From: an uncultured Nitrososphaera sp.
GTDB taxonomy: Archaea > Thermoproteota > Nitrososphaeria > Nitrososphaerales > Nitrososphaeraceae
Assembly: GCA_964556935.1 (NCBI GenBank)
Contig: CAZKXR010000001.1
Location: 79,988-143,987 of the forward strand
Reading direction: 5' to 3'
Length of the DNA stretch: 64,000 nt
The translations under genes and the position numbers were made by a program. Of the stretch, positions 5,317 to 62,754 are shown in pieces (the first letter of the stretch is position 1; every line of letters begins with the position of its first letter). The notes under the pieces were generated by a model. That model saw only the letters and a program-made list of their open reading frames with translations. It made no database searches and was not told the origin of the DNA.

Positions 5317-5638
5317 TAGCAGACCAGATTGATCGCAAATGGTATAATATCTTTTAGGGCGCGATTACCGTGGAGATAAAGAATTACGAAGGAAAGATGG
5401 TAACCTACTGAAGATGATTTTCTTCTGCAACAATTCCATTACTATCATGCAGAACTGGTAAGAGACTTGCAGCGACTATGACAAACTGTGGTGGCTATGC
5501 TGCAGTCTATCTACATACCGATGCCACAGCACGGAGAAGAAAAGAGTTAAGACGATAAGGTAAAATAGTTTAAAACCCTGCCGGATTTTACTGCCACCCA
5601 AAAAACCGCCAGGCAGGAAGACAAAAATCAAGGTTGTG

Positions 5639-6274
5639 ATGTGGACTGTTCGAGCTTTTGGCGTAGCGATTATCGCGGTTTTCGTCAACATGTTATACGA
5701 AGATGTGTATAAAGAACCGTTGCTGAAGTTATCATTTTCCATCTATGATATCGAAAACGATCATTCTGTGACAGAACTTGGTCTTGAAAATAAGGGTCAG
5801 TCTCCTGCAACAAATTTGCGGGTAACCATCGATTCCAACAACAAAATACTGTATTTCGAAGCAAAGTCTGATGAAGAAATCAGCTCACGTCAAATAGACT
5901 CCATTGAGGACAGGTTAATAATGACAATGCCGCGGCTGACCAAGGAAGCATTCTTGAGCACTATTCTTACTAACGATTTCAAGGCATCAGATGTTTCTTA
6001 CAGTATTGATATCACCCACGACAGCGATTCCATACACATAAACCAAAAAGATATCCTGGTGGATTTCAAGGCCAATGATCTCAGCATGGAAGCGATGGCT
6101 CTGGAAAAGGAAACCTTTCATTACGAATATGACCAGGAGAAAATAAAATTATCCAAATTTCTAACTAAAGATTCGACAAGCCTTTTTCTAATAATAGCTG
6201 CGGCATATGCAGTAATTCACATCTCCCTGGAAGCGACCATGAAACTCAGGAAATCTAAGGGACAATATTACTAA
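5639..6274 (+). CDS. Membrane-anchored hypothetical protein (N- and C-terminal TM helices around a beta-rich domain)
   Basis: ORF track 5636 is a GTG directly followed by ATG 5639. Hydrophobic segments: N-terminal AFGVAIIAVFV and C-terminal LFLIIAAAYAVIHISL. Lies in a low-GC islet. Confidence 0.5.
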   Translation: MWTVRAFGVAIIAVFVNMLYEDVYKEPLLKLSFSIYDIENDHSVTELGLENKGQSPATNLRVTIDSNNKILYFEAKSDEEISSRQIDSIEDRLIMTMPRLTKEAFLSTILTNDFKASDVSYSIDITHDSDSIHINQKDILVDFKANDLSMEAMALEKETFHYEYDQEKIKLSKFLTKDSTSLFLIIAAAYAVIHISLEATMKLRKSKGQYY

Positions 6275-7339: not shown

Positions 7340-9694
7340 ATGGAACCCAAGATACAGAGCAAGTCATGGAACCACGAGATTGAAAAAGAGATCCTGAGCA
7401 GGTGGGAGCAGGAGGACATTTACCGCTTTACAATAACAGACAAACCTGCCTTTGTCATCGACACGCCGCCTCCCTATCCTTCAGGCAGGCCCTGGCACAT
7501 CGGCGCTGCGGCGCACTATGCCCAGATAGACATGATTGCCCGGACTGCACGGATGACTGGAAGAAACGTGCTTTTCCCCATAGGGATAGACAGAAACGGC
7601 CTTCCAGTAGAGATCTACACCGAAAAAAAGTACAAGGTCCGGATGCGGCAGATGGACCGGCAAAAGTTCCTTGACCTCTGCAGAGGCGCTCTTGACGATC
7701 TGGAAGCCGAGATGCTCCAGATAATGAAGAACATGGGGCTGTCAGGCAATTTCAAGGAATACTACCGTACCGATTCTGATGAATACCGTGCGCTGACCCA
7801 GAGCACGTTCATAGAACTCTGGAACCGGGGGCTGGTCTACCTGGCAAACAGGCCTAACAATTACTGCCCGGACTGCGGGACGACCATCGCGGATGCCGAG
7901 ATCATATACAACGATCTGCCAACCAAGCTGGTGTACATGAAGTTCAAGGTAAGCGGAAGCGACGATCAGATCATCATCGCCTCTACCAGGCCAGAACTGC
8001 TGTGCTCCTGCCAGGCAGTCATCGTCAATCCCGAAGACGAGCGTTACCTTGACTATCAGAACCGAAAGGTCGTTCTGCCTTTATTTAACAGGGAGGTTCC
8101 TGTCAGGTTCCACCATTCCGCCAAGACGGAATTTGGGTCCGGCGCCGTGATGGTCTGCAGCTACGGCGATCAAAACGACGTGCAGGTCTTCAGGGAGCTG
8201 GGGCTGAAGGAAATAGTGGCCCTCAACGAGAACGGCTTTACCACGGAGGCTGCCGGCCCGTACGCCGGCCTGCGCGTGAATCAGGCAAGGACAAAGGTAA
8301 TCGAGGACCTGAAGGCTGCGGGCCTTGTCGAGAAAGAAGAGAACATAATGCACAGGACGCCGCTTTGCGAGCGGAGCAAGACTCCCATAGAGATAATTCC
8401 GTTGCACGACTATTACGTCAAGCAGCTGGATTTCATCCCGCAGCTGCAGGAGATGTCTAGGAACCTGAAATTCCATCCAGAGATGCACAGGCAGATCCTG
8501 CTCAACTGGCTTGATTCCATAGCCATAGACTGGCCGGTCTCCCGCCGCCGTTTCTACGGGACCGAGATCCCGATATGGTACTGCAATTCGTGCAAGTCGC
8601 CGCTGCTGCCAAAGCCGGGAAAATACTACAGACCGTGGAAGGAAAATCCGCCGTTTTCAAGCTGCCCCAAGTGCGGCGGCACGGAATTCACCGGCGAGGA
8701 CAGGACGTTTGACACCTGGATGGATTCAAGCATTAGCCCGCTTTTTGTAACTAAGTTCTGCAGCAATGAAGAATTGCACAACTACACGTATCCTGCAGCC
8801 GTCAGACCGCAGGCCAAGGACATCATCCGAACGTGGCTGCACTACACCATGCTCAGATGCGTGCAACTGACCGGCAAGCTGCCCTGGTCTGAAGCGTGGA
8901 TTATGGGGTACGGCGTTGATGAAAAAGGAGAAAAGATGAGCAAGAGCAAGGGAAATGTCATCGACCCCTTCCCGGTCATACAGCAGTATGGCGCCGACAC
9001 ATTCCGGTTCTGGTCTGCAAGCGAGGCCAACCTTGGCTACGATTTCAGATGCTCAGAGCAGAGGATAGCCGGTGCACAGAAATTCATGTCCAAGCTGTGG
9101 AATGTAGGCCGCTTCCTTTCGTCTTTCGACGTGGTCAGCGACAGGCCGGCAGAGCTTGAAGCCTCCGACAGGTGGATACTTGCCGAGCTGGCCAAGCTGG
9201 TCGAGGAGTGCCAGCGCGGCTACGATGAATACAATTTCTTTGTCCCTGCAAACGCTGTCCGTGACTTTACATGGAATCTTTTTGCCGCTCACTACGTGGA
9301 GATGGTCAAGGGCCGCGCCTACAGCCAGGAAAGTCCGGGCCATGATTCTGCACTTTATACGTTGCACAAATGCTTCAAGACAGTACTGTTGCTGCTGGCG
9401 CCCATAACACCTTTCATAGCCGAGGAGCTCTGGACCAAGATGTATTCAAATAAAACCATCCATCACCAGGAATTGCCGCATTTCAATCAGCAGCCGGAAG
9501 CAGACGGCGAGATGACCAAGTTCACGACGCCCATAACCGAATTCAACTCGCTTGTCTGGAACAAAAAGAAGGAGACCGTGTCAAAGGAGACCGGCAAGCC
9601 GCTTTCACTAAAGGACCCTATAGACATCCCGGTCCCAGACCAGCTGACGCCATTCAGAAAAGACCTTGAAGAGATGCACAATCTCCAGAAATGA
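7340..9694 (+). CDS. valS: Valine--tRNA ligase (class I aaRS)
   Basis: IDTPPPYPSG..HIG (HIGH-like), GIDRNGLP, CPDCG zinc knuckle, KMSKSKGN. The N-terminal pattern and the 784-aa length match archaeal ValRS better than LeuRS or IleRS. Confidence 0.8.
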   Translation: MEPKIQSKSWNHEIEKEILSRWEQEDIYRFTITDKPAFVIDTPPPYPSGRPWHIGAAAHYAQIDMIARTARMTGRNVLFPIGIDRNGLPVEIYTEKKYKVRMRQMDRQKFLDLCRGALDDLEAEMLQIMKNMGLSGNFKEYYRTDSDEYRALTQSTFIELWNRGLVYLANRPNNYCPDCGTTIADAEIIYNDLPTKLVYMKFKVSGSDDQIIIASTRPELLCSCQAVIVNPEDERYLDYQNRKVVLPLFNREVPVRFHHSAKTEFGSGAVMVCSYGDQNDVQVFRELGLKEIVALNENGFTTEAAGPYAGLRVNQARTKVIEDLKAAGLVEKEENIMHRTPLCERSKTPIEIIPLHDYYVKQLDFIPQLQEMSRNLKFHPEMHRQILLNWLDSIAIDWPVSRRRFYGTEIPIWYCNSCKSPLLPKPGKYYRPWKENPPFSSCPKCGGTEFTGEDRTFDTWMDSSISPLFVTKFCSNEELHNYTYPAAVRPQAKDIIRTWLHYTMLRCVQLTGKLPWSEAWIMGYGVDEKGEKMSKSKGNVIDPFPVIQQYGADTFRFWSASEANLGYDFRCSEQRIAGAQKFMSKLWNVGRFLSSFDVVSDRPAELEASDRWILAELAKLVEECQRGYDEYNFFVPANAVRDFTWNLFAAHYVEMVKGRAYSQESPGHDSALYTLHKCFKTVLLLLAPITPFIAEELWTKMYSNKTIHHQELPHFNQQPEADGEMTKFTTPITEFNSLVWNKKKETVSKETGKPLSLKDPIDIPVPDQLTPFRKDLEEMHNLQK

Positions 9695-10716
9695 AGGCCG
9701 TTGTATTTCACCAGCACGGACCTGTTGACGTCCTGCAGTACCAGGATGTCTCAGACCCGGTACCCGGCAAGGACGGCATTATAGTCGACGTCGACTACTG
9801 CGGCGTTAACCATCTTGACATCTGGACAAGGCAGGGCATAACAGGCAAGAAGATAAGGCTGCCGCACATCTGTGGCTGCGACATTGTCGGTACTGTTAGT
9901 AAGAGCGCGGCCGGCTTTGAAGCTGGCGAGCCGGTGATGGTATATCCTGGCATCAGCTGCCATCAATGCTCGCATTGCAAAAGCGGGCGTGAAAACCTGT
10001 GCAGCAAGTTTGCCATCCTGGGCGGCCTAAGCGACTACGACGGCGGCTACGCGCAGCACGTGGCAGTGCCGGCGGCAAACCTGATAAGGTTATCGGGTTT
10101 GGAAAGCAAGACGGCTGCAACACTGGCTGTTTCGTACCTGACATCGTGGAACATGCTCAGGACCAACGGAGCCGGCAAGGGCCGGTCCCTTCTTGTTTAC
10201 GGAGCTGCAAGCGGCGTGGGGATGGCAACGATTCAGCTGGCAAGGGCCCTTGGCATGTCTGTGATTACCACGGCAGCCGGCAGCCAAAAGACAGAATTCG
10301 GCAGAAAACTTGGGGCCTACCACGTCATTGACCGGCTGCAAACCAGGGACATCGCCGGCGAGGTCATGAAACTGACCGAAAACCGAGGCGTGGATATCGT
10401 CATAGACCATGTAGGTGCAGCTACATGGCAGACCAGCATCGCGTCCGTCAGGACCGGAGGAAGAATGGCGGTCTGCGGCATGACGTCAGGCAACGAAGCC
10501 ACCGTGCCAGTACGAATGTTTTACAGCAAGCAGATAACGATGACCGGTGCGCTTTTGGGCTCCAAATTGCAGCTGCTAGAACTCGTTGATTTTGTTAAAG
10601 CAAACAAAATTCAGCCGGTCATAGATTCCATCTACGCGCTTAAAGAAGCAAAAGAAGCGCAGACAAGGATGGAGCAGGACCTGCACGCCGGCAAGATACT
10701 GCTCAAATGCAGCTAG
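9691..10716 (+). CDS. Zinc-type medium-chain dehydrogenase/reductase (alcohol dehydrogenase / quinone or enoyl reductase family)
   Basis: GVNHLDIW..G, structural-zinc-like CHQCSHCKSGRENLC, Rossmann motif VYGAASGVG. The start overlaps the valS stop by 4 nt (ATGA). Confidence 0.85.
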   Translation: MKAVVFHQHGPVDVLQYQDVSDPVPGKDGIIVDVDYCGVNHLDIWTRQGITGKKIRLPHICGCDIVGTVSKSAAGFEAGEPVMVYPGISCHQCSHCKSGRENLCSKFAILGGLSDYDGGYAQHVAVPAANLIRLSGLESKTAATLAVSYLTSWNMLRTNGAGKGRSLLVYGAASGVGMATIQLARALGMSVITTAAGSQKTEFGRKLGAYHVIDRLQTRDIAGEVMKLTENRGVDIVIDHVGAATWQTSIASVRTGGRMAVCGMTSGNEATVPVRMFYSKQITMTGALLGSKLQLLELVDFVKANKIQPVIDSIYALKEAKEAQTRMEQDLHAGKILLKCS

Positions 10717-15772: not shown

Positions 15773-16360
15773 CTACTTTCCTGATCTGTGTATGAGCCGG
15801 ATCGTCTCTTTGCCGTAATCATTGGTCAGTTTGCGCGGTTCGTAAGCGCCGCACTCGATGCACTTGATGGAATCGTTTATCCTGACGGTATCGCCGCCAC
15901 ACTGGAAGCAAAGCGCATACAGTACGCCAAATTCCTTTTCAGCCACGGTCAGGTGCACGGTGGAATTCAAAAGGCTCACCACCCTTCCGCGAACAATGTC
16001 GCCAGCCCTGAAGACGGGTCTGTCTCTTCTGTCGCGGCCTCCACCTAGCCTTATTGAGGCGATGGCCGAATAGCCGGAATAGGACTTTTTGTTGTTAATG
16101 TACAGGATCTTGACTGAGATCATGCTGCTGAAAAGCATGTCTATGAAGCCCACTACTATGTCGCCGACCTTGGGCAGCATGGGTGAGTTCTTTTGTTCTA
16201 TCTTTACTGTACGTCGCTTGAAATCGTAAACCTTGGTTCCTACAGCCGCGGATCTTACCGTCCCGTCTGCAGCAACGTATGTATTCTTGCCGCCTTCAAA
16301 TTCTTCAATGGAGGCAAGCTGTTCTCCTGGTAATATCGGCTGATCATCTGTCTTGCTCAA
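15773..16360 (-). CDS. csl4: Exosome complex RNA-binding subunit Csl4
   Basis: N-terminal domain, S1-like core (GDIVVGFI, GDIVRGRV) and C-terminal zinc ribbon CFQCGG...CIECG. Confidence 0.8.
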   Translation of the reverse strand: MSKTDDQPILPGEQLASIEEFEGGKNTYVAADGTVRSAAVGTKVYDFKRRTVKIEQKNSPMLPKVGDIVVGFIDMLFSSMISVKILYINNKKSYSGYSAIASIRLGGGRDRRDRPVFRAGDIVRGRVVSLLNSTVHLTVAEKEFGVLYALCFQCGGDTVRINDSIKCIECGAYEPRKLTNDYGKETIRLIHRSGK

Positions 16361-16516
16361 TTCGGATTGAACATCGCGTCGGCAAGTTATAACTGTTTAT
16401 GGAATTGAAAAATGCAAAATTTGAAATTAATGGCTGCAAAATGTGCGTGTTTCTTAAGGCTCGGCAAGAGCGAAAGATAATAAAGGTATAAAGACCAGTT
16501 AGTTGAAGGTGTTAAT

Positions 16517-18685
16517 GTGAGCCAGAATACATTATCCCTAAAGGTGCTTGAAGCGTACACAAGGGACGTCGGTAGAGGAGTAGCAAGGATCGACTACGAC
16601 TCGATGGACTCTCTGGGCGCATCAACTGGTGATGTTATTGAAATAAGAGGCAAACGCAGAACCGTTGCCAAGTGTTTACCGCTTTACCCGTCTGACGAAG
16701 GCAAGGGAATCATCCGGGTTGACGGTCTTGTAAGAAACAATGCCGGCATAGCGATAGGCGATACCGTTACCGTCAAAAAGATAAAGGCAGTTCCAGCTGA
16801 AAAGATCATAGTTGCGCCGCTAGAAGCTATTCCTCCAATCGATGAGCGCTACCTTGCCGATGCGCTGGAAAGCGTGCCACTGATCAAAGGCGACAACGTC
16901 ATGGTTCCGTACTTTGGCGGCAGACTCACGTTCCAGGTCATTGGTGTCACGCCGGCGGCAGATGCTGTCCTAGTTACCCAGAAGACGATATTCCACATCG
17001 CCGAGAAGGGCGAGACCATGAGGGGTGTTCCACAGGTCACCTACGAGGATATCGGCGGCCTCAAGGAAGAGATCCAGAAGGTCCGCGAGATGATAGAGCT
17101 GCCGCTGAGGCACCCTGAAATATTTGAAAAGCTGGGCATCGAGGCTCCAAAAGGCGTACTGCTGTACGGTCCTCCTGGAACCGGCAAGACCCTGCTGGCA
17201 AAGGCTGTTGCAAACGAAAGCAACGCGCACTTTATCAGCATATCCGGCCCGGAGATCATGAGCAAGTTCTACGGTGAATCAGAGGCACGCTTGAGGGAGA
17301 TATTCAAGGAGGCAAAGGAAAAGGCTCCATCCATCATATTCATCGACGAAATAGACTCCATCGCACCAAAGAGAGAAGAGGTGACCGGCGAGGTCGAAAG
17401 AAGAGTCGTATCACAGCTGCTCTCGCTTATGGACGGCCTTGAAGCAAGAGGCAAGGTCATTGTCATTGCTGCGACCAACAGGCCAAACGCCATAGACCCG
17501 GCGCTAAGACGTCCAGGCAGGTTTGACAGGGAGATTGAAATCAAAGTCCCAGACAAGCGCGGCAGGCTGGAGATACTTCAGATTCACACCCGCAACATGC
17601 CCCTTGACACGGACGTGGACCAGGACAAAATAGCAGCCGTGACGCACGGCTTTGTAGGAGCAGACTTGGAATACCTCTGCAAGGAAGCTGCAATGAAATG
17701 CCTGCGCAGACTGCTGCCGGAGCTCAACTTGGAAGACGAAAAGCTTTCTCCGGATGTCCTGAACAGGCTGATCGTCACCATGGGAGACTTTGAAAACGCA
17801 GTCAAGGAAGTCATGCCTTCTGCCATGAGAGAAGTCTACCTAGAATCACCGGACATACCCTGGTCTGCCATCGGCGGACTGGAAGAAGTCAAGCGCGAAT
17901 TGCAGGAGGCTGTTGAATGGCCGTTGCGTTACCCAGAGCTATATGCAAAGCTTGGACACACAATGCCCAAGGGCATACTGATGCACGGCCCGTCAGGAAC
18001 CGGCAAGACCATGCTGGCAAAGGCTGTGGCCACAGAATCAGAAGCCAACTTTATCAGTGTCAGAGGCCCGGAGCTTCTCAGCAAATGGGTCGGCGAATCC
18101 GAGCGTGGCATCAGGGAGATATTCCGGCGCGCAAGACAGGCGGCACCATGCGTGGTGTTCTTTGATGAAATTGATTCCATCGCTCCAACCAGGGGCATGG
18201 GCGGCGACAGCATGGTTACCGAGCGCGTAGTATCGCAGTTGCTTACAGAGCTGGATGGAATTCAGGCCCTTTCCGGCGTCGTTGTCATCGCTGCAACAAA
18301 CAGAGCCGATATCATCGACCCCGCACTGCTACGTCCAGGCAGGTTTGACAAGATAGTGTTCGTACCAATGCCTGACAAGGCCACCAGACAAAAGATTCTG
18401 GAGATTCATGTCAAGAACAAACCAATCAGTCCGGACATCGATGTCCTCAAGATAGCAGAACTGACGGACGGCTTCAGCGGCGCAGACACCAGCTCGGTGG
18501 TGAACACTGCCGTGTCGCTGGTACTGCACGAGTACCTAGCGAAGTATCCGACTCCAGAAGAGGCTTCCAAGCATGCATCAGAAGCGCACGTAATGATGCG
18601 TCACTTCGAAGAGGCTGTCAAGAAGATAAAGACACAGCGTGAAGGCAAGCCCGGAGAAAAAGTCACAGTACAGTACTACAGGTAA
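16517..18685 (+). CDS. cdc48: CDC48/VCP-type AAA+ ATPase (two AAA domains)
   Basis: The N-domain is followed by two Walker A motifs ([16 protein letters not shown]), DEID/DEID Walker B motifs and second-region-of-homology arginines. GTG start (ATG 16515 is out of frame). Confidence 0.95.
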
Positions 18686-18701
18686 GTACTGCTGGCCCAC
18701 A

Positions 18702-18730
18702 CTTTTTCATTTTTGTCGAAAAAAATTTTC
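18702..18730 (+). terminator. Oligo-T tracts downstream of cdc48
   Basis: CTTTTTCATTTTTG...AAAAAAATTTTC lies 17-45 nt after the stop. Archaeal termination typically occurs at T-runs. Confidence 0.35.
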
Positions 18731-18999
18731 ATCGTATTTAGTCTCCGAAATATATCACGTTATCAGCCACTAAAAGTTGTGTCAAATAGATACAAAAAAG
18801 AGGAAATTTTGACCTCGTCAGGTATATACTTTGCAGCCTAGATGCGAAATCTTTCCAAGATGACTAGGGAAATAATATTAGGTACGGACTTCAAAGATTG
18901 TGGGGCAGCACTTGTGGATATCCAATGTTCTCAGCAATCTCCAGGGTCGTTCGCGCCACGAATTGCTGAACACTTCAAAAATGCATTCCGGTGAATTAG

Positions 19000-19734
19000 T
19001 TGGCTAAACCATCCATACTTATTAGTCACAGTAATAAATTTGAACGCACACTGCGACTTCTTGTCCAATTCCTTCATGAGCTTGGAATCGAGCCGGTGGT
19101 GGTAGAGGACCAACCTAATCAGAGTATGAACCCTGATGAAAAAGTACAATTTTACCTCGGAGGAGTGGATGCTGTATTAATTTTTGCAACTCCTGACGAT
19201 GAAGTTCAAAATGCCGATGGAAACTATATGCAAGTGCGACCTAATGTTATCGACGAATACTCACGCGCAAAATCAGATCCGACCAAAGCTCATAAGATAA
19301 TATTCATGAAGGAAAGAAAGGTCAGACTTAATTCAAACATCAACCCTGCGTATATCTCATTTGAAGTGGAGAAGATCGACGATTCATTGCAGGCGTTAGC
19401 ACAGTTGCTTCGTGAGTTGAAATCAATGGGGCTCCTGACGGTAGTTGGTAGGGACATGCAAAGCAATTTAGAATTCTCTACTGACAAGAAAACCTATAGC
19501 AGAATCGAATCAATTATTATTTCAGGTCGGGTTAATCCTGTGATCGATTCTCCAATTTCTTTGCAACTTTTCTCTCCTAGCAAACTTGAATCGTTCCAAT
19601 TACCTCAAATTCAAAATGATGGAACTTTCAGCAGTCGCTTCGTTCTCAGGAGTGATGCTGTCTTAGGCACTTATACTATACAAGCTACTTATCTTGGGAA
19701 GAGTCATGATGCCCGAATCGAGGTGACAACATGA
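19000..19734 (+). CDS. TIR-like (CAP12/Pycsar-effector-type 'predicted nucleotide-binding' domain) protein with a C-terminal Ig-like beta-sandwich
   Basis: The N-terminal 120 aa read KPSILISHSNK..FLHELGIEPVVVEDQPN..EKV..AVLIFATPDDE..VRPNVIDEY..IIFMKE..ISFE. They align by eye along the TIR-like family consensus (VFIvHG..fLe.lGlepiiL.eqpn..EKf..AvvLlTpDD..R.NVifE.G..yi.f). The C-terminus (GRVNP..DGTFSSRF..GTYTIQATYLG..IEV) looks Ig-like. TTG start immediately after an in-frame stop. Confidence 0.6.
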   Translation: MAKPSILISHSNKFERTLRLLVQFLHELGIEPVVVEDQPNQSMNPDEKVQFYLGGVDAVLIFATPDDEVQNADGNYMQVRPNVIDEYSRAKSDPTKAHKIIFMKERKVRLNSNINPAYISFEVEKIDDSLQALAQLLRELKSMGLLTVVGRDMQSNLEFSTDKKTYSRIESIIISGRVNPVIDSPISLQLFSPSKLESFQLPQIQNDGTFSSRFVLRSDAVLGTYTIQATYLGKSHDARIEVTT

Positions 19735-21170
19735 ATCCAAAAGCGAATATCCATGTTGGCAACATACTTATTCATCTACCTGATGGAACTATTGATTTCA
19801 TAGACGGAAAGCTTACCAATGGACGTGTAATTCGAGGCACCACAAAACCTGTATTCGCAAGTATCGTTTTCGAGGTTGCAACAAAAATAGATGGAGATGG
19901 ATCATTGGTTCTTCATCTGCCGCGCTGGCTAATCGATGCCAGAAAGAAAAACGATGACGATGATTTCATAGTATTTGTGGACGGCAAACAAGTGGAAGCA
20001 CAAGAAACAGCAAGAAGTGAAGAATTAAGGATAATAGAGATAAAAGTTCCCGCTGGGTCAAATACCGTAGAGCTTATAGGTACAAGATCCGCGCGGAAAA
20101 AGCCAACAGAGGAGCCAGAAGTGGAACTGGATAAGGAATTGATTGGTCCTCTATCGCAATTCATGATTACTGTGATAGATTCATTAGCCAAGAGGGACGC
20201 CAGTGACAGGGAGTCTGTTGTGGTCTTTGTAAAAACAGATGATGGTAAACAAGAGTTGGAGCTCAGGCTATATGAGAAAGATAGGAATAGTGGGCTATTT
20301 ACGGGCATGCTTAGACTAACTCCAAATCTCCGGCTCTTCCCGGGGGACCTCGAAGTAAAGCCCGGCACGCTCATTATGATAAGTTATGAAGGACAACAAT
20401 ATGACAAAACAGGGAATCTAAGGAATGTGACTGTTACCAGAGTGAGCGAGATACGGACCTTCAATCCAGAGTTCCTATTCGATAAGGATCATTATTCTAT
20501 CGGCGATCACGTATCGATTAAGATATCAGATCCAGATCGCGATATCCATTCGACAATAAGAGATACGATCGAAGTCAGGATATCTTCTACTTCAGATAAG
20601 AAGGGCTTAATCCTAAAACTTGTGGAGACTGGCTTATCCACAGGGGTTTTCGAGGGCACTTTCCGTCTCCTGTCAACCACTAATCCCTCTTTGAATTCGC
20701 TTAAAGTAGCAGATGGTGATCAACTTATAGTTCATTATTCTGATCCATATCCTGCTGACTACCAGGACACCACTTTGGGAAGAGAATTCATTTTTTCTAC
20801 AAATGTTGGTATTCAGAAACCTACGCCGTGGGAAGTAATTCTTTCTACTCCTCGTATAGTCGATGCTCGGGGGTTAGAACTCAACCACTTATCGCAAGGA
20901 CAGCTTATCATGGTTGAATCTCAAATAGAGAATGTAAAACATAGAGAAATGAAATTCGTATTGCTCTTGGAAGTTCGTGATTCTGAGGACCACACAGTAC
21001 ACATTTCTTGGACTGAGGGATCTATTACTGCTTCTGGTTTTACTAATGTAGGATTGTCCTGGACGCCACAAAGTACTGGTAGATTCGCCATTAGAACTGT
21101 AGTTCTAACTAGCATATCTAATCCTGTTGCGCTTTCACCTGTGCAAATAATTGATGTTAACGTGCAGTAG
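19731..21170 (+). CDS. Beta-sandwich repeat protein without signal peptide; paralogue of secreted protein 48182..49396
   Basis: The start overlaps the upstream stop by 4 nt (ATGA). It has two repeats with a D-P-D-x-D...E-T-G-x-S-T-G-x-F-x-G signature. The C-terminal domain shares EVRDSED..W..G..GLxWTP..G.. with the 48182 protein. Confidence 0.6.
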   Translation: MNPKANIHVGNILIHLPDGTIDFIDGKLTNGRVIRGTTKPVFASIVFEVATKIDGDGSLVLHLPRWLIDARKKNDDDDFIVFVDGKQVEAQETARSEELRIIEIKVPAGSNTVELIGTRSARKKPTEEPEVELDKELIGPLSQFMITVIDSLAKRDASDRESVVVFVKTDDGKQELELRLYEKDRNSGLFTGMLRLTPNLRLFPGDLEVKPGTLIMISYEGQQYDKTGNLRNVTVTRVSEIRTFNPEFLFDKDHYSIGDHVSIKISDPDRDIHSTIRDTIEVRISSTSDKKGLILKLVETGLSTGVFEGTFRLLSTTNPSLNSLKVADGDQLIVHYSDPYPADYQDTTLGREFIFSTNVGIQKPTPWEVILSTPRIVDARGLELNHLSQGQLIMVESQIENVKHREMKFVLLLEVRDSEDHTVHISWTEGSITASGFTNVGLSWTPQSTGRFAIRTVVLTSISNPVALSPVQIIDVNVQ

Positions 21171-21292
21171 TACGCGGATACGGTTGGCACTAAAAATTTT
21201 CGCGCGTTGTCATAAAGTGACGCCGCGCAACAATTTTGCGGGGTAATGTTTTTAAACTGTCGGTTTTATGATAACAACATCCAAAAAAATTG

Positions 21293-22639
21293 ATGGAAAA
21301 TTCCCAAGTCCAACTCGTACAAAAATCAGTACCGCCGCTGAATCGTTTTGTAACAGCGCTTGACATCAATAATCTAGTCGCACAGTATGGCACGCCACTC
21401 TATCTTGTTGACGAGGACACCCTGCACGCCAAAGCAAGAGAGCTCCACAGAGCCTACTCTAAATTCAGGGGGCCAGTCAAGGTGGCGTACTCTATCAAGG
21501 CGAACTTTACGCCCGCGATAATCCGCGCGTTCATGAAGGACGGACTGACGTTCGACCTGACTTCGCTTGGCGAGCTTCACTTTGTCAAGCAGTGCAAGGC
21601 TGATCCAGAGAACATCATCTACACCAGCGTCACCGAAGAGCCGGATGAATATCTGGAAGTCCTTCGCAGTGGAGTCCGAAGAATAGTCGTCAGCTCGCAC
21701 AAGGGCATGATGAATCTTGCCATGGCTGCAGGAAAGCTAGGTGTCAGGCCGATGACCATGATTCGAGTCAACCCCGAAGTCGGCGTCAAGGCCGAGGTCC
21801 GCGCGTCGTACAAGAACGGCAAATTCGGAGTTCCCTTCAATGGCGGAACCATCGATAGCGCGACCAAGATGGTCAAGCACATGATGGAAAGCGACCTTCT
21901 GAAATTTGAGGGATTTCACTTCCATCTGGGTTCACAGATCACGGACTTCTCCTGCTATACGCATGCGCTGGACAAGATGGATGCCTTCATGACCAAGATG
22001 AAGAAGGAGCATCCAAACTTCCATGTCAATACGTTTGACATTGGCGGCGGAACGCCGGTATTCTACAACGACCCAGTACCGACGCCGGCAGAAATGGCCA
22101 AGAACCACGTGGACAGGCTGGATCAGCTTGCAGAGAATCATGGCACTTTCACGCTGATGATCGAGTCAGGCCGCTTCCTTGTCGCTGAATCGTCCATCTT
22201 GGTATCAAGGATTGTAAATACTAAGGAGTACAACGAGCACAAGATAGTGATCGTGGATGCCGGCTACCACATTTTGCTTGACGCTGCACTACTCAAGCAG
22301 GAATACCCACAGGAGATAATCCCTGTCATCGACGGCAACGACAGAACCACAAGCCTGGCAGCACCAACCACGGTCAAAAACACACACCTTGCTGGAAGGC
22401 TTTGCGACACATACGACGTATTTCCGGTCTCCAAGGCTTCAGACCTCAACGGAGCGGATGTTGGCAAGTACGTCTCGTTCTACAACGTCGGCGCCTACTC
22501 TGTGGTGTTCAACATGCCCTTCCACTGCCAGACCAAGCCACCCATAGTCATGAAGGAAAGCGACGGCAAGTTCCGGCTGGTCAGAAAAGGCACGACCTAT
22601 CAGCAGCTTTACACAGAAGAAGGCGGAGATCTGGCCTAG
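21293..22639 (+). CDS. lysA: Fold-III PLP decarboxylase (Orn/DAP/Arg family), probably diaminopimelate decarboxylase
   Basis: YSIKANF (PLP lysine), FHFHLGSQI, DIGGG, CDTYD. ORF track 21290 is a TTG directly before ATG 21293. Substrate assignment is by family habit only. Confidence 0.65.
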   Translation: MENSQVQLVQKSVPPLNRFVTALDINNLVAQYGTPLYLVDEDTLHAKARELHRAYSKFRGPVKVAYSIKANFTPAIIRAFMKDGLTFDLTSLGELHFVKQCKADPENIIYTSVTEEPDEYLEVLRSGVRRIVVSSHKGMMNLAMAAGKLGVRPMTMIRVNPEVGVKAEVRASYKNGKFGVPFNGGTIDSATKMVKHMMESDLLKFEGFHFHLGSQITDFSCYTHALDKMDAFMTKMKKEHPNFHVNTFDIGGGTPVFYNDPVPTPAEMAKNHVDRLDQLAENHGTFTLMIESGRFLVAESSILVSRIVNTKEYNEHKIVIVDAGYHILLDAALLKQEYPQEIIPVIDGNDRTTSLAAPTTVKNTHLAGRLCDTYDVFPVSKASDLNGADVGKYVSFYNVGAYSVVFNMPFHCQTKPPIVMKESDGKFRLVRKGTTYQQLYTEEGGDLA

Positions 22640-22646
22640 TTTTTTT
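22640..22646 (+). terminator. T7 tract immediately after the lysA-like stop
   Basis: TAG is followed directly by TTTTTTT. Confidence 0.4.
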
Positions 22647-23041
22647 ACAGATCTCTTGACAACCTTTTAAGACCGTAGAACTATTCTGGTCGTTGCGTGC
22701 AGCTATGGCTGGATCCCAATAAGGTTTCGTTTCAAGATGCTATGATAAGGACTTGGCCTGCGAACGACTTGCAGCATAGGAACTTCAAAATTATGGCCTG
22801 ACAAACGGCGATGGAATCCACACCCGTTTTCGAAGTAGAGGTCTTAAACATGCGGAGCCGGCCAACGAAAATCATGTCGGAGAGAAGTGTAACCCAAAGC
22901 TCGAGGCCGCAGTATGGTTTGATAATTCCGGCAAAAAGGCAGTCATTGCCAGCCTTAGGATAAGGGAAGCCGCGCAGCTTGGTCTGGAACTGTTGTCTAT
23001 AAAAGATAAATCAAGATTAACAACCAGGTACTAGCGTACAT

Positions 23042-41726: not shown

Positions 41727-41870
41727 GTCGGTCCCTGCAGACTAAAGGATACGTTGATAGCTAGCATTAAGTTTCTTTGTTTTTGCGGGCTGTCAGGCCT
41801 TCGGTTGGCCGTACAAAGGAGTTAATAAGATCAGCGACTGGGGTATGCGAGAATGCTTCAGGTAGCACCA

Positions 41871-41882
41871 TTATATTAATAA
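41871..41882 (+). promoter_or_regulatory. TATA-like element TTATATTAATAA upstream of GTG 41906
   Basis: It lies 24-35 nt upstream of the start proposed from comparison with the paralogue. Confidence 0.35.
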
Positions 41883-41905
41883 CATCGTTCCACGTTCCTT
41901 GTCGA

Positions 41906-42283
41906 GTGCCTAACTATCGGGACTTGTGCAATGAAATATTGCAGCTCGATAGGGTGTCCTTTGTTGGTGTCATTACCATGGGTGGCAAGATTCTATTTTC
42001 TGATTACAAAGAGAGCAAACCCATGTATAAAAAATCGGAGGCAGAAAGCGCGCTCATGAAAGCGGCCATAAGGATGGGCTCAAGAAAAGAGTTCCTAGAA
42101 AAGCTAGGAGATGTAAACTATTCACTTACGGAGTACAGTTTGGCAAAACAGTTCACCATCCCGCTAGAGAAAGACGTCCGTACCTTGCTTTTTGTTTCAG
42201 AGTACAACGGCAGCAACGGCTCGAATGACAAAATAACCATTGACAGCATAATGGATATTCTAATGAAGCACGGTGTGAGATGA
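41906..42283 (+). CDS. Small roadblock/LC7-like (DUF6659-like) protein; paralogue of 10713..11084
   Basis: The ORF track starts at 41777, but that extension has no ATG. GTG 41906 gives (M)PNYRDLCNEILQLDRVSFVGVITMGGKI..., colinear with MDMDFAKLCERVLDLNDDIRYAGVIDDIGAL... of the other copy (125 vs 124 aa). Confidence 0.45.
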   Translation: MPNYRDLCNEILQLDRVSFVGVITMGGKILFSDYKESKPMYKKSEAESALMKAAIRMGSRKEFLEKLGDVNYSLTEYSLAKQFTIPLEKDVRTLLFVSEYNGSNGSNDKITIDSIMDILMKHGVR

Positions 42284-42284
42284 T

Positions 42285-43073
42285 CTATGGTCTGGACAAA
42301 ATCTCTTTTTTGATCTCAGACTTGATGGAATCAAAAATGATGTCGGCTGATTTGCCAAACATTCCCCTTATGGATTCTTCAAAAGCTTCCGGCTGAGAGA
42401 TGATGTTCCCGTCTGCTGCATAATTCCCGGCAGTCTTGAGAATCAGCTTCGACGTCTCATTTGGAAAGAACCTGTTCAGGGCATTTTTCACAACTTCAAT
42501 GCCTTTTTCAGGAGTCCAGACAAACCGTTCAAAGTCGGGGTAAATGATGCGCTGATGCGAATTCAACAGACCAAGTATGTAGCTCAGTGGCAACCTTTCG
42601 ATGCACCCCATCGTGTAACAGCACACGGCTTCAATTCCAGAAAGGTTATCGAAATTTTTTGCCACCAACTTCTCGTATTCTACGATCTTCTTTTGGTTAA
42701 CCCCTCTTTCAAAGAAAGCATCCGGAAGCATGCCCATAACCAGAAAACCCTTGAAACTGCCGTTTTCCTTGATCTTGGAAAGAAGGCTGTACCATTCATC
42801 TAGCATTGGGCGGCCATAAAAATTCATTTTTTTCGGTAAGTAGAACGTATTTTTGTCGATCAAGGTCAGGGCTTTGGATTCCAAGAATCTCTTGCTTTTC
42901 GGATCTACGCCGGCTATCTTGCTTGCAACCTGGCTTGGGTTAGATTCTACCACATAAACGACGGCATAACCTTCAGAAAGATACTTGCTTATTTGTTCGT
43001 AAAGCTGATGGTAACCAGAATTAGGTGCAACACCCTCCAAGATGTACATAGAGTGAAAATGTTGCACATTCAA
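42285..43073 (-). CDS. MEDS-domain-like protein with a C-terminal helical module
   Basis: HFHSMYILEG, YLSEGYAVVYV, LTLIDKNTFY, VEYEKLV and AVCCY..H follow the MEDS (methanogen/methylotroph DcmR sensory) domain pattern as I remember it. Confidence 0.5.
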   Translation of the reverse strand: MNVQHFHSMYILEGVAPNSGYHQLYEQISKYLSEGYAVVYVVESNPSQVASKIAGVDPKSKRFLESKALTLIDKNTFYLPKKMNFYGRPMLDEWYSLLSKIKENGSFKGFLVMGMLPDAFFERGVNQKKIVEYEKLVAKNFDNLSGIEAVCCYTMGCIERLPLSYILGLLNSHQRIIYPDFERFVWTPEKGIEVVKNALNRFFPNETSKLILKTAGNYAADGNIISQPEAFEESIRGMFGKSADIIFDSIKSEIKKEILSRP

Positions 43074-43359
43074 TAAACAATCCTGACATTTTTATAAAGT
43101 TGATGCCACATGGTGCAAAGACGCGTATTACAGTAGAGGCGACGGCTTAAGGATAGCGCAGTGTTTATACTATCATGCCATGCACGTTCTGTAATTTACA
43201 ATAATTGTGTTTCAGTGAAATCGTTTTTATTTACCGATTATACAAGATTGGTTAGTATTGGTATTTGTAACCATAAAATGCCGATAGTTGTCAAATCGAG
43301 CTATTATTTCTGTCCCTTTTATGATACTAGTTGGAGACTTTATCTAGCATCAAAAATTG

Positions 43360-43367
43360 TTTAAATA
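43360..43367 (+). promoter_or_regulatory. TATA box TTTAAATA upstream of ATG 43393
   Basis: It lies 26-33 nt upstream of the first ATG (MSHVSD). The ORF-track start 43357 (TTG) would place the TATA box inside the gene. Confidence 0.4.
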
Positions 43368-43392
43368 CGTCCTAAACAATTGCGGTTCTGCC

Positions 43393-43875
43393 ATGTCACA
43401 CGTTTCTGACAGCAATGGAGGGCCATCGGATTTCGCGTCCTGTATGCTGCAGGCACTGGATCTGGTGGGAAATGAATCGAGGGAAGTGATCCTAAGCTAC
43501 ATAGAGAACAGATATGGTGTGGAACGTGACTCTATTGCAGAACACAAAGATGAATTTTACAACTATCTTCGTGAGACTCTGGATTCTAGCGCGGAAATTA
43601 TTATTTCCAAGATCAATCAGGCACTGGAACAAAACAACTGTGCACAAAAAGGAGCGCAGCAGAGCAAAAGAATATCGTCGGATATCCGATTTCTGATCTG
43701 CAATTCTTGCTTCTGGTGCGCCTCACAGCTATCCTCCCAGTTTGAGCAGACATGTCCTTCCTGCGGTCAGTGCATAACCGAATCCACGTCCATTTCAGTC
43801 AACGAATTGTACAAATTCGATTATCATCCAGAACATGGTATTATTGAATTCAAAAGAAATGGAATAGCCGAATAA
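43393..43875 (+). CDS. Hypothetical protein: N-terminal helical module shared with 42285..43073, plus a C-terminal zinc ribbon
   Basis: CNSCFWC...CPSCGQC four-Cys ribbon. The N-terminal LQALDLVGNESREVILSYIENRYGV..EFYNYLRETLDSSAEIIISKINQAL parallels the MEDS protein tail. Confidence 0.5.
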   Translation: MSHVSDSNGGPSDFASCMLQALDLVGNESREVILSYIENRYGVERDSIAEHKDEFYNYLRETLDSSAEIIISKINQALEQNNCAQKGAQQSKRISSDIRFLICNSCFWCASQLSSQFEQTCPSCGQCITESTSISVNELYKFDYHPEHGIIEFKRNGIAE

Positions 43876-48181: not shown

Positions 48182-49396
48182 CTAATCTACCGTTACTTGG
48201 GATGTCACCACTGCAGAAAGGATACCAGGGCTATCGACGATACGATCAAGGACAAGCACTCTTACCTCATACTCACCGGCTGCCTCCGGCGTCCAGAACA
48301 GACCGATTCCAGTGACGGCGTCTGGATTCAATGTCCCTGCCTGCCATTGCAGGTATATTGTCCTGTCTTCAGAATCCCTTACTTCCATGATTGCCACAAA
48401 AGGTAGCGCTCTGGCCCTGTTGTTCTCAATCTCTGTGGACAGAGCCACCTGCTGGCCGGCCTCTATCTGGGTCAGCTCATTGCCAGTAAAGTCCCTGACC
48501 TTTGGTTGTGACGGCGTCGTCGCATCCAGACCTGCTATTTCTCCGACAATAAACGTGTAATGGAACTCTTTGTCGGGGTTGTCGGTCTCCTCAAGCCTCG
48601 CAGCGTAGTCTGCCGGGAATTCATCGGTGTAAACTATGGTGACCGTATCTCCGTCGCGGACCATCACTGCCCCTCCCCGCGCTTCGTCTGCAAGCTGAAA
48701 CGACAGCCGGAATTCGCCGCTGTTCTCGCCGGTTTCCAAGGCAGAATAGGTCTGGCCCACAGCATCGCTGTCGGAGAACACCCTGATGCCGGTCAGCGAG
48801 TCGGCAATGTCCGGGTCCAAGTTGGCGTCAGGATCAACTATGGTTACCGTTACGCGATCGTTTACGTCGTACGATTCCTTGTCCTGAGTGAATTGCGGAT
48901 CCCAGCTTTTGACCTCGACGGTCGTTGATAATACCTCCGAGCGGCCTTCTGCGTTTCTGTTGTCTTCGTACCTGATCATTAGCAGATCGCCGGGAAGCAC
49001 GCCAATCCTGGGATCGGAGCCTCCCCGTACTGGGATTGGTTGGCCGTCATCGCCACCTTCTATGGGGACCAGCTGTATTTCAAACTTAAATACGCCGGTG
49101 TTGGGGCCGGTCTCCTCAAGGTCCGGGCTTGCCTGCCCCGCTTCACTCCTGTCGGTCCTGAATACAACCATGCCGTCGCCTGTATCGTCGCCCTCAAACT
49201 CGTCGGTTCTTTGTGGATTTATGTTAAGGTCAAAGTCCGCTATCTGGATTCTAATCTTGGCACCTGGACCGATGGCATCCGCCGTTGTTCCGATGACATT
49301 GGACGTACTGGCAGAAGCGTAGCTGCCGTTTGCAAGAACCAGACTGACAATCGTGCATGCGGCCAAAAACAAGCAGAGCGCGTGTCTCACGCTCAT
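48182..49396 (-). CDS. Secreted/surface beta-sandwich repeat protein; paralogue of 19731..21170
   Basis: N-terminal signal/anchor MSVRHALCLFLAACTIVSLVLANGSYASAS. Two D-x-D..ETG.N(S/T)G.F repeats and the shared C-terminal EVRDSED domain. Confidence 0.65.
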   Translation of the reverse strand: MSVRHALCLFLAACTIVSLVLANGSYASASTSNVIGTTADAIGPGAKIRIQIADFDLNINPQRTDEFEGDDTGDGMVVFRTDRSEAGQASPDLEETGPNTGVFKFEIQLVPIEGGDDGQPIPVRGGSDPRIGVLPGDLLMIRYEDNRNAEGRSEVLSTTVEVKSWDPQFTQDKESYDVNDRVTVTIVDPDANLDPDIADSLTGIRVFSDSDAVGQTYSALETGENSGEFRLSFQLADEARGGAVMVRDGDTVTIVYTDEFPADYAARLEETDNPDKEFHYTFIVGEIAGLDATTPSQPKVRDFTGNELTQIEAGQQVALSTEIENNRARALPFVAIMEVRDSEDRTIYLQWQAGTLNPDAVTGIGLFWTPEAAGEYEVRVLVLDRIVDSPGILSAVVTSQVTVD

Positions 49397-61900: not shown

Positions 61901-62754
61901 ACGCCGTTTCCGTTCACGCCGAGACCTGTCAGCGTGTTTGCGTAACCAGTGTTAGGCCCGGTATTGGGCGCAGCATTTCCGTCCAAATCACCTGCAGCTA
62001 TCTGGCAAGAACGTTCATCAAGGAGTATTGATTCGGGATGGAAGTCAAGCCACCGGACATCTTGAAGACTTGCGATCTTGCTCAGTCTGCTTGCATCAAG
62101 TTCAGCAATAATTGAAACAAACCTGCCGGAAGCATTATCATCTTTTGAAACGATCTTCCCTTTTGACTCCTCTATCTGTTTGTAGAGCAAGGCTGTGTCA
62201 CCGCTGCCAAGAAAACCTATGTTCACGCGCACATTACCACGCATCTTTAAAAGACGGGAGGAGACCTTGTACGCTGGCTGGAAAAGGCCCGTCCATGCAA
62301 CAAAAGGCATCTTTTTAAGCTTGTTTACGTCTTCAGCGCTTCCAACAACGAAAAGCCCGTAGCTTGAGATTTTTTCAACGACATCTAGGCCCTGAGACTC
62401 AATTTCATGTATCCACTCTTCGGTGGGCGGTCCGATCAGCTGCACAAGGTGATGTCGCCACACTTTCTCACTCGATTTCGGCACCTGTAACTCCTTGGGT
62501 ATCTCGGGGAGTTTTTCTTCAATGTTGATCTTGTAAGGACCGACGACAAGTATGTTGGTGTCGGGCAGTAATTTGATGCGAAATCCCTTCTTTTCCAGCT
62601 TTGCAAATTGTTGCTTGCTTCCTCTCACCAGCACACCGGAAGGAAACTCGTACTCAACTGCACATCCTGCATTACGAGCCTCACTGCTCTCTGCAATCAC
62701 GCTGTCTTTGGTTCTGACCACACCTTTTTGCGCAATCAATGCCTTGAAGGCCAT
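58921..62754 (-). CDS. 1277-aa subtilisin-like (S8) serine protease fused to a von Willebrand A domain and several beta-sandwich domains; no signal peptide
   Basis: Catalytic triad motifs: ICDSGID (D291), HGTHVAG (H328), GTSMAAPHVAG (S548), oxyanion AAGNSG. A post-catalytic beta-sandwich follows (RITLVWTDAPG). The vWA domain has MIDAS DRSGS (783-787) and VVLLSDG. The N-terminus MAFKALIAQKGVVRTKDS is hydrophilic. Confidence 0.85.
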   Translation of the reverse strand: MAFKALIAQKGVVRTKDSVIAESSEARNAGCAVEYEFPSGVLVRGSKQQFAKLEKKGFRIKLLPDTNILVVGPYKINIEEKLPEIPKELQVPKSSEKVWRHHLVQLIGPPTEEWIHEIESQGLDVVEKISSYGLFVVGSAEDVNKLKKMPFVAWTGLFQPAYKVSSRLLKMRGNVRVNIGFLGSGDTALLYKQIEESKGKIVSKDDNASGRFVSIIAELDASRLSKIASLQDVRWLDFHPESILLDERSCQIAAGDLDGNAAPNTGPNTGYANTLTGLGVNGNGVTIAICDSGIDTHNNATMQADLAGRMAFFLDQTGGAITVDRNGHGTHVAGIAAGNGTSGDADPQGFVLGQGMAPNANFGSINAIAGGVAINLNAWVQGAVTNNSNVMNNSWGTANAGVALFNQGYTALCRTLDQLVRDPNTGTATLENLAIVFAAGNSGPNNSTIGEPSEAKNAIVVGNSLNFRPGEGDLDDIRGLRQSSSRGPAVDGRILPNIVAPGANIISVRPGPTVDSNPGTPGIQQPRTAYTDTGGTAHSNHYDNSGTSMAAPHVAGMCALLFEWWRNRTGGANPSAALLKALLVNGAVDIAGGSTRRVDAAGNQIPIANIPNNDQGWGRVNLENIMLQAPATNRGPKIISDQRHAFTANGQEYQIRVSPVDTARPMRITLVWTDAPGAANANPALVNDLDLEVTEDSTGNVYRGNVFNNGFSATGGAFDDRNNTECVYIQNPNGVYQVRVIASGLSMNARPPFDATPWQDFALVIDNAEVPSATPVSVVPAIDRSGSMVTFGYENVTRISSKQFVDMMSVDDQVGVVSFGSTGAVEYPTGASPAVQTITGQPVRDAAKGEIDGMGFGGCTYMGDGILKARDLLNTATVAGAKAVVLLSDGYDNKGCDPANPSKPSALDAVALLPPNLPVYTCAMGPASDQTLLEQIASTTSGRYYYMPTIDDLFEIYNYIRGQVSGDSIIVNDSATASSSRLPAFVDAYASEVTFTVSWADSKLKFVSGEPSKPNEVNVRLRDPRGRLLNSDYGYLRRIEGEGYVIFKLQEPIPGQWFVEVKTHENTHVRYTVGGFVKSPLKLAASLFPKHAVRGVPITIAAQVYNGKMPIKGFAATCNVKTLATGIPDLMAKYASQLQKIVVSSRGDKMPQDMAKLAALRNKMLKETDIFATASSTVNLKSTSSDTLRRIGLGNLFSGTAVTVPDVSVVTPLPVVTVPGIVSPTVPSIGAGTGVLVGQFRETKNSGSYNVIVTASGMCPILNTRFVRKDLVSVHVK

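Follow-up and report, generated by a model that had tools for sequence, protein, structure and literature searches.

Ammonia-oxidising archaea drive soil nitrification, and their antiviral repertoire has barely been charted. We analysed 64,000 nucleotides of DNA from an uncultured Nitrososphaera sp. (contig CAZKXR010000001.1, positions 79,988 to 143,987; hereafter the window), in which two overlapping genes lie on a compositionally foreign block between cdc48 and a decarboxylase gene. Gene 1 encodes a TIR domain joined to an immunoglobulin (Ig)-like domain, and gene 2 encodes four beta-sandwich domains, part of which is homologous to the base of an archaeal surface layer (S-layer). An initial annotation, made from the letters of the window, had described the two open reading frames (ORFs) with their ATGA overlap and had put them forward as a candidate conflict or defence module. 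Both ORFs exist as described, and the module is supported as a candidate with a putative function. The features of the locus are as follows.

18731..21191, plus strand: inserted block of foreign composition, absent in the closest genome (L003) and coinciding with a dip in GC content
18721..18730, no strand: left 10-bp direct repeat AAAAATTTTC, given by the overlap of the alignment blocks against L003
21192..21201, no strand: right 10-bp direct repeat AAAAATTTTC, given by the same overlap
18731..18999, plus strand: non-coding leader of 269 nt (longest ORF 50 aa), presumed to supply the pair's own promoter
19000..19734, plus strand: gene 1, TIR-Ig protein, TTG start, 244 aa
19000..19449, plus strand: gene 1 TIR domain of Cap12/PycTIR type, residues 1-150 (PF10137, AlphaFold2 model, Foldseek, profile search)
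19237..19257, plus strand: active-site motif R80-P-N82-V-I-D-E86 in helix alpha-C, with the E86 codon at 19255-19257
19465..19731, plus strand: gene 1 C-terminal MG2-type Ig-like domain, residues ~156-244 (sub-cut-off Pfam MG2 match; Foldseek)
19722..19734, plus strand: coupling junction, with a Shine-Dalgarno-like GGTGA (19722-19726) 4 nt before the gene 2 start and an ATGA stop/start overlap
19731..21170, plus strand: gene 2, four beta-sandwich domains, no signal peptide, 479 aa
19791..20084, plus strand: gene 2 D1, residues ~21-118 (AlphaFold2 model; orthologues 39-40% identical)
20112..20453, plus strand: gene 2 D2, residues ~128-241 (AlphaFold2 model; partial NCBIfam Kustd1514 match)
20463..21167, plus strand: gene 2 D3-D4, residues ~245-479, homologous to D9-D10 of the S-layer protein NmSLP
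16517..18685, plus strand: left flank, native cdc48-type AAA ATPase, 722 aa (Pfam CDC48_N/CDC48_2/AAA)
21290..22639, plus strand: right flank, native gene of the Orn/DAP/Arg decarboxylase family (Pfam Orn_DAP_Arg_deC)
48182..49396, minus strand: native secreted paralogue of gene 2 D2-D4, outside the cassette, 404 aa, signal peptide, GC 0.547

Nucleotide alignment of the window with its closest genome, Nitrososphaera sp. bin14 (L003), delimited an inserted block of 2,461 bp at 18731-21191 and identified L003 as the empty allele. DNA identity between the two genomes is 93-96% over about 10 kb per side, and 95.4-95.6% in the flanks within 16000-23000. The two alignment blocks, which run to window position 18730 and resume at 21192, overlap on L003 positions 9903-9912; this 10-mer is present as a perfect copy at each end of the insert and as a single copy in the empty site. 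Such a repeat is the signature of target-site duplication or of microhomology-mediated integration, and we do not over-read it because the motif is short and A/T-rich. An integrase, a transposase, a tRNA gene, terminal inverted repeats and an Rfam match were all sought at the insert borders and none was found, so that the flanking direct repeat is the only feature that the block shares with an integrated mobile element such as a provirus, casposon or insertion sequence.

These borders correct the initial annotation, which had rightly recognized a foreign block and had placed it too widely, at 18686-21290. Its AT-rich upstream spacer of 315 nt measures 314 nt and is composite: the insert supplied its last 269 nt, whereas the 45 nt before them (18686-18730) belong to the native sequence, with a counterpart in the empty site. 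The low GC content that it had reported is borne out by both 300-bp windows and third codon positions. GC is 0.416 in the block versus 0.507, and it runs at 0.39-0.44 across 18650-21350 against 0.50-0.57 on both sides. Among all 2,461-bp windows in the 64 kb, the block has the lowest value (0.412-0.416; median 0.515), and GC at third codon positions (GC3) is 0.376 in gene 1 and 0.369 in gene 2, the two lowest among 53 ORFs (median 0.616, standard deviation 0.083). A second small indel lies near the cassette, where about 284 bp of intergenic sequence 3' of the decarboxylase gene (22683-22966) is without a counterpart in L003, which has 7 bp there. Further ORFs with low GC (0.39-0.44) and low GC3 lie in the window at 1322-2901, 5636-6274 and 41777-43875; among them, 1322-1765 encodes a SnoaL_2 protein, 42285-43073 (minus strand) encodes a protein with a MEDS domain, and four have no Pfam match. 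These ORFs may be further accessory or acquired genes.

Neither gene is encoded in any of 80 orthologous Nitrososphaeraceae loci, which we retrieved through the flanking decarboxylase (71-98% identity across the 80 relatives; the cdc48 protein is 88-100% identical in relatives with a full-length match). Sixty-four of these relatives have both flanking genes, and in 62 of them the gap between the two spans 96-540 bp with no credible ORF, two of these gaps containing spurious low-complexity open frames only. A Nitrososphaera metagenome-assembled genome, SMAG_U4506 (L012), has a 1.1-kb gap at the junction (8898-10000) with an unrelated 231-aa ORF of normal GC and with a hydrophobic N-terminus. 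Because L012 carries a different ORF at the same site, the junction has taken cargo at least twice; we considered and rejected a general insertion hotspot, as other cargo was found only in L012. Carriers of the cassette are confined to contigs of the window's own population (L001, L002, L088 and L089). These data show that the cassette is an insertion of foreign composition and that its presence is polymorphic between near-identical genomes, and they dispose of the possibility, raised in the initial annotation, that the block is a core locus of the clade.

The TIR-like character of the gene 1 N-terminus, which the initial annotation had assigned by eye to the family of CAP12 and Pycsar effectors, was borne out by profile and structure searches. 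Residues 6-115 matched positions 2-110 of the 119 in PF10137 (45.4 bits against a gathering cut-off of 24.7; E value 9.9e-12), and 65 of 70 aligned homologues match the family as well. An AlphaFold2 model built from 70 homologues had a predicted local distance difference test score (pLDDT) of 94-98 over residues 1-145, and ranks 1-6 in a Foldseek search with this model were TIR-STING (Cap12) structures (7un8, 9lmq and 9lmr; E values 3e-5 to 4e-4, with SfSTING 7un8 at 3e-5). In searches of the PDB, a profile of short TIR-only homologues (A8) matched Cap12 (9lmq at 2.5e-7, 7un8 at 9.8e-7) and PycTIR (1.5e-3), and also AbTIR, SpbK and SARM1; clean matches to Cap12, PycTIR and SARM1 came from this profile only. 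A single-sequence phmmer search of the PDB with gene 1 returned noise only, and a trimmed 26-sequence profile (A2) missed Cap12. The first family profile (A1) was discarded; contaminated by HEAT-repeat tails, it matched PP2A and designed repeat proteins.

The same A8 alignment placed the family segments FiShs, pRqNvidE and lpSNinp on FIGSS, pRdNvvfE and lpTDldg of SfSTING. The R80/N82/E86 motif proposed in the initial annotation, with E86 at 19255-19257, thereby aligns to SfSTING R78/N80/E84, and N113 aligns to D110. Among the 70 homologues, N82 and E86 are invariant and R80 and N113 at least 90% conserved, and a helix at 81-92 of the model contains E86. The SfSTING filament study (PMC9402430) assigns stacking of the nicotinamide to F6, holding of the substrate to S10, R78 and N80, and catalysis to E84 of helix alpha-C, with D110 supplied in trans by the dimer mate. 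The residues of gene 1 at these positions are L7, S11, R80, N82, E86 and N113, a set from which the domain is predicted to hydrolyse nicotinamide adenine dinucleotide (NAD+), that is, to be an NADase.

Several observations support the TTG start of gene 1: the Pfam alignment begins at residue 6, the two full-length homologues P0010 and P0012 align from residues 1-4, pLDDT is 94-96 over residues 1-30, a Shine-Dalgarno-like GGTGA (18990-18994) lies 5 nt ahead of it, and the NCBI and Logan calls are both 244 aa. The JGI call instead begins at M43 (202 aa) and loses strand beta-A and helix alpha-A (19000-19125); it is an annotation artefact that hides the TIR domain and leaves only 'faint' Pfam matches. 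The Ig-like C-terminal domain, also part of the initial annotation, was recovered as an MG2 match below the Pfam cut-off (25 bits) and through Foldseek matches to Ig constant domains. Its sequence relatives are MG2 repeats (50-143 bits) in long, mostly signal-peptide-bearing proteins, some of which carry subtilase or SLH domains, and it has no detectable sequence similarity to the domains of gene 2. PADLOC matched gene 1 best to PDC-S35 (E value 2.1e-8), with residues 21-144 on profile positions 135-254 of 264, the TIR part, and weakly to a TIR effector and SpbK.

Gene 2 was modelled by AlphaFold2 from a shallow 12-sequence alignment (pLDDT 80.6), which delineated four domains (D1, 21-118; D2, 128-241; D3, 245-340; D4, 366-479). 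In a phmmer search of the PDB, residues 262-478 matched residues 1517-1733 of the 1,734-aa chain 8c8k with an E value of 3.5e-26. This chain is the S-layer protein of Nitrosopumilus maritimus, NmSLP (Nmar_1547; PDB 8C8K-8C8R), which also ranked first when the gene 2 model was searched with Foldseek (8c8m/8c8k, ~1e-14, template modelling score (TM-score) 0.70 on a 253-residue chain), followed by macroglobulin-domain arrays of complement and alpha-2-macroglobulin. Residues 146-342 partially matched the NCBIfam Kustd1514 S-layer glycoprotein, Pfam matches were weak and of Ig type only, and comparison with a viral structure library returned generic Ig-array matches only, with low TM-scores. The matched NmSLP segment comprises domain 10 and the last part of domain 9. 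Domain 9 forms the base of the lattice on the membrane side; domain 10 is flexible and unresolved, and in the authors' suggestion it anchors the S-layer to the envelope (PMC11153153).

The initial annotation had recognized the kinship of gene 2 with the protein encoded at 48182..49396 and had ascribed to gene 2 a distinct N-terminal domain and the lack of a signal peptide; all three statements are upheld. The two proteins are 31% identical over gene 2 residues 180-478 (E value 8e-48). We rejected a recent duplication of this native gene as the origin of gene 2, given that identity and a GC of 0.42 versus 0.547. Sharing D2-D4, and hence the D9-D10-like end of NmSLP, the paralogue may be a small pseudoperiplasmic or S-layer-associated protein. 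D1 is absent from it; outside the pair-linked proteins, D1 was seen only in a secreted family with a membrane anchor. In P0161 (256 aa), D1 stands behind a signal peptide and is followed by a PEPE linker and a C-terminal transmembrane segment. Two other relatives of gene 2, P0004 (835 aa) and P0005 (585 aa, labelled 'plastocyanin' by JGI), join S-layer-type repeats to a cupredoxin- or plastocyanin-like C-terminus, an architecture suggesting that thaumarchaeal envelope proteins make wide use of this repeat family. The window also encodes a protein of 1,277 aa that combines subtilase (Peptidase_S8) with VWA domains (58921-62754, minus strand), and on L087 a similar 1,408-aa S8 protein lies two genes downstream of the S-layer-like P0160.

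A Kyte-Doolittle window scan, a home-made hydropathy test rather than a dedicated signal-peptide predictor, found no N-terminal hydrophobic segment and no transmembrane segment in any of six pair proteins from three lineages; secreted relatives score clearly in the same scan. The maximal 15-residue mean within the first 50 residues is 1.09 in gene 2 versus 2.79 in the secreted paralogue, and the gene 2 ORF is not extendable upstream, its start being the first after the preceding stop. Lysine and arginine together make up 10.6-11.3% of the three pair-linked gene 2 proteins (11.3% in gene 2 itself), compared with 7.2% in the secreted paralogue, 1.6% in P0160 and 3.9% in NmSLP. All non-TIR domains of the cassette belong to families that are otherwise extracellular. 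We infer from these sequence properties that gene 2 probably encodes a surface-derived protein that remains inside the cell.

When 1.84 billion representative proteins were scanned in full with HMMER, 442 relatives of gene 1 emerged, only two of which have the full TIR-Ig architecture: P0010 (47% identity) and P0012 (38%). Each is directly followed by an orthologue of gene 2, D1 included, so that the pair is co-conserved outside this genome, as the initial annotation had proposed to check. The gene downstream of P0010 is 34% identical to gene 2 over residues 1-430, and P0159, the partner of P0012, is 31% identical over residues 18-478; for both genes of both pairs these count as full-length matches. 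A stop/start overlap is found in all three pairs and takes the form ATGA in the window and in L083; in L085, the called second gene starts 59 nt upstream, overlapping the first, and a candidate GTG start identified by eye gives GTGAGTGA. The neighbours of the pair are unrelated between lineages, no third gene is common to them, and remnants of the L083 and L085 neighbour genes were sought in the window and not found. GC is 0.38-0.39 in the contigs of L083 (GCA_030157145.1) and L085 (SRR22388208), with no dip at the pair, consistent with passage of the cassette from a donor of lower GC into a Nitrososphaera genome of 51% GC. Its domains of NmSLP type suggest that this donor was another member of Nitrososphaerota.

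Other searches added no further pair. A word-indexed homologue search with gene 1 returned its self-match only, a metagenome scan with the gene 1 alignment found one TIR-only protein and no pair, scans of viral contigs with both families gave no match, and tblastn against phage and plasmid records gave nothing relevant. In the nearest TIR relatives, the domain occurs at either end of the protein, with interchangeable partners that include HEAT repeats and helical N-terminal domains. P0016, 43% identical in the TIR and with a C-terminal domain of no known family, lies beside a phage-type integrase and an NB-ARC/AAA_16 ATPase, and P0020 (TIR-HEAT) stands alone among genes of purine biosynthesis. 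The P0016 locus (L090 2610-8985, also L091 and L092) contains a Peptidase_M49 gene as well; its ATPase is STAND-like, and the whole looks like a mobile defence islet. The modular and patchy pattern of this TIR subclade is typical of conflict systems, though not proof of one.

On balance, and by a modest preference, we read the cassette as a horizontally acquired two-gene conflict or defence module that most likely acts against viruses, by abortive infection or dormancy. The proposed effector is gene 1, a TIR domain tethered to an MG2/Ig-like domain, and gene 2 would be the sensor, the scaffold or both; NADase activity, complex formation, trigger and defence phenotype are all predictions. Defence by NAD+ depletion is known to work in archaea (10.1101/2024.09.12.612678). 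In the mechanism we envisage, the two proteins would form a complex through Ig-Ig contacts in which the TIR domains are held apart. An infection-associated ligand, most naturally a viral protein whose evolved binding site is the base of the host's S-layer, would bind the gene 2 array and drive higher-order assembly. As TIR-STING filaments do, the assembly would then bring TIR domains into contact so that the active site is completed in trans, and NAD+ depletion would follow. A more specific version, in which gene 2 is an intracellular S-layer 'integrated decoy' that traps newly made viral receptor-binding or egress proteins and thereby clusters the Ig-tethered TIR NADase, is speculative, and we consider it possible but doubtful. 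If true, it would mean that archaea have effector-triggered immunity of the decoy type, based on a mimic of a surface protein, and it would lead directly to the proteins by which viruses recognise the thaumarchaeal S-layer. The clean presence/absence polymorphism and the coding size of 2.2 kb make the hypothesis directly testable.

Several observations weigh against a defence function. The cassette stands alone between housekeeping genes, outside any defence island, and the neighbours of the pair in L083 and L085 are mostly unknowns with weak defence-like matches only. Gene 2 has no PADLOC match. The pair is extremely rare, and since it is confined to three lineages, there is no evident sign of selection for a defence function of broad use. 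Within gene 1, position 7 is Phe in at least 90% of the family, aligning to SfSTING F6, and is Leu here; the Ig domain is modelled with low confidence (pLDDT 52-74); and folds like that of PF10137 occur also in non-immune nucleotide and nucleoside hydrolases such as MilB (PMC9402430).

The lone insertion and the sporadic distribution would also suit a selfish toxin-antitoxin or addiction pair, as would two tightly overlapping genes that are inherited as a unit and have moved horizontally. The beta-sandwich protein would then restrain a TIR NADase toxin stoichiometrically, and the pair would persist through post-segregational killing without any sensing of viruses. We regard this as unlikely: at 479 aa and four surface-type domains, the antitoxin would be unusually large and elaborate, and the pair has no DNA-binding or autoregulatory domain. 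The boundary with abortive infection is also fuzzy, and the idea partly overlaps with the defence module that we favour. A non-immune role in the envelope, with gene 2 as a chaperone, assembly factor or regulator and the TIR-like domain as a hydrolase or binder of nucleotides or nucleotide-sugars, draws on the fact that all three non-TIR domain types come from envelope families, that the genome encodes a secreted paralogue and that TIR-like folds include non-immune glycosylhydrolases. The foreign composition of the cassette and the conservation of the full NADase-type residue set make such a role quite improbable, and a housekeeping function in the envelope cannot be served by a cassette that is absent from 80 of 80 related loci, including a near-identical genome.

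Two further explanations concern how the proteins would communicate and where they would act. Thoeris is now being extended to two-gene operons in which a TIR protein has an unknown partner, with PF10137 among the Pfam families used to find them (10.64898/2025.12.03.692087), and the TIR domain could accordingly make an ADP-ribose-derived signal on infection that gene 2, as a new effector, would bind. Gene 2 is, however, all beta-sandwich, with no recognisable effector or nucleotide-binding domain (SIR2, SLOG, Macro, transmembrane or nuclease), and the TIR domain is nearer to the effector-type Cap12 and PycTIR than to ThsB, which leaves signalling of this kind very unlikely. Export of both proteins through some route not yet recognised, with the TIR domain acting extracellularly or as a delivered toxin, is scarcely to be expected even though every non-TIR domain has secreted relatives: the Kyte-Doolittle scan found no Sec/Tat-like hydrophobic N-terminus or transmembrane segment in any of the six pair proteins, the gene 2 ORF cannot be lengthened upstream, Lys+Arg content is above that of secreted relatives, and NAD+ is a substrate found inside cells. 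A conflict or defence module that arrived by horizontal transfer remains the reading that we prefer. What the present analysis adds to the initial annotation is the empty site with its 10-bp repeat, the homology of gene 2 to NmSLP and the extreme rarity of the pair.

Compared with characterised systems, the cassette has an effector-type TIR domain and lacks its known signal-generating partners. The initial annotation had seen no cyclase, SAVED domain or other known signal-generating partner, and the insert indeed holds the two genes only. No CD-NTase cyclase was found in the insert, in the flanks or beside the pair in L083 and L085; gene 1 has no STING or SAVED sensor, its C-terminal domain being MG2/Ig-like; neither a pyrimidine cyclase gene nor an effector with a cyclic nucleoside monophosphate (cNMP)-binding domain, the two parts of Pycsar (pyrimidine cyclase system for antiphage resistance), was found at the locus; gene 2 contains no Thoeris-type partner domain (SIR2, SLOG, Macro, transmembrane or another signal-binding domain); and the match to PDC-S35 covers the TIR part rather than the full length. 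Because these defining partners and domains were sought and are absent, the cassette is not a cyclic oligonucleotide-based antiphage signalling system (CBASS), Pycsar, Thoeris or full-length PDC-S35.

The closest likeness is to Cap12 (TIR-STING, for example SfSTING 7UN8, and TIR-SAVED), with which gene 1 shares the PF10137 TIR subtype, the R-x-N-x-x-x-E motif and a conserved residue at the D110 position; the likely common logic is an NADase activated by ligand-driven oligomerisation. The cassette differs in having no CD-NTase and no STING or SAVED domain, an MG2/Ig domain in the sensor's place, a separate beta-sandwich partner and an archaeal host. PycTIR (PDB 8JSJ) belongs to the same Pfam family, and here too the cassette is without the pyrimidine cyclase and cNMP-binding domain. 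Many of the closest TIR relatives resemble the single-gene PADLOC system PDC-S35, with 250-290 aa and a C-terminal TIR, from which gene 1 departs by its N-terminal TIR, Ig fusion, obligate partner gene and lack of an N-terminal helical domain. Gene 2, in turn, corresponds in residues 262-478 to part of D9 and all of D10 of NmSLP, the membrane-proximal base and the flexible C-terminal domain. It is 479 rather than 1,734 aa long, with four rather than ten domains, a different N-terminal domain, no signal peptide and 11% rather than 3.9% Lys+Arg, and it shares its operon with a predicted TIR enzyme, within an inserted cassette; by its sequence, gene 2 is homologous to NmSLP yet fails the defining features of an S-layer protein.

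Two more distant parallels bear on the proposed wiring. In plant TIR-NLRs (nucleotide-binding leucine-rich repeat receptors) with integrated decoys, a TIR NADase is linked to a domain that copies a pathogen-targeted host protein; the cassette has neither an NB-ARC nor a leucine-rich repeat domain, and a decoy role of gene 2 is purely hypothetical. In bacterial Schlafen proteins, a C-terminal Ig-like domain is an intracellular phage sensor, and binding of a phage structural-assembly protein leads to oligomerisation and activation (review PMC13434031). The likeness, an intracellular Ig-like domain attached to a toxic effector, is by analogy only, as the Schlafen effector is a tRNase on a single polypeptide with no S-layer-derived partner. 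No description of a TIR plus S-layer-like pair was found in the searchable literature, and the cassette is nevertheless not categorically new, because an effector with a variable sensor is already a known design. A TIR type validated as an immune effector occurs here without its known signal-generating partners and tied to a putatively cytoplasmic protein made of S-layer and other surface domains. Should the pair prove to serve in defence, it would represent a new wiring of a TIR NADase to a sensor, in which the unusual element is an internalised surface-protein array as the obligate partner.

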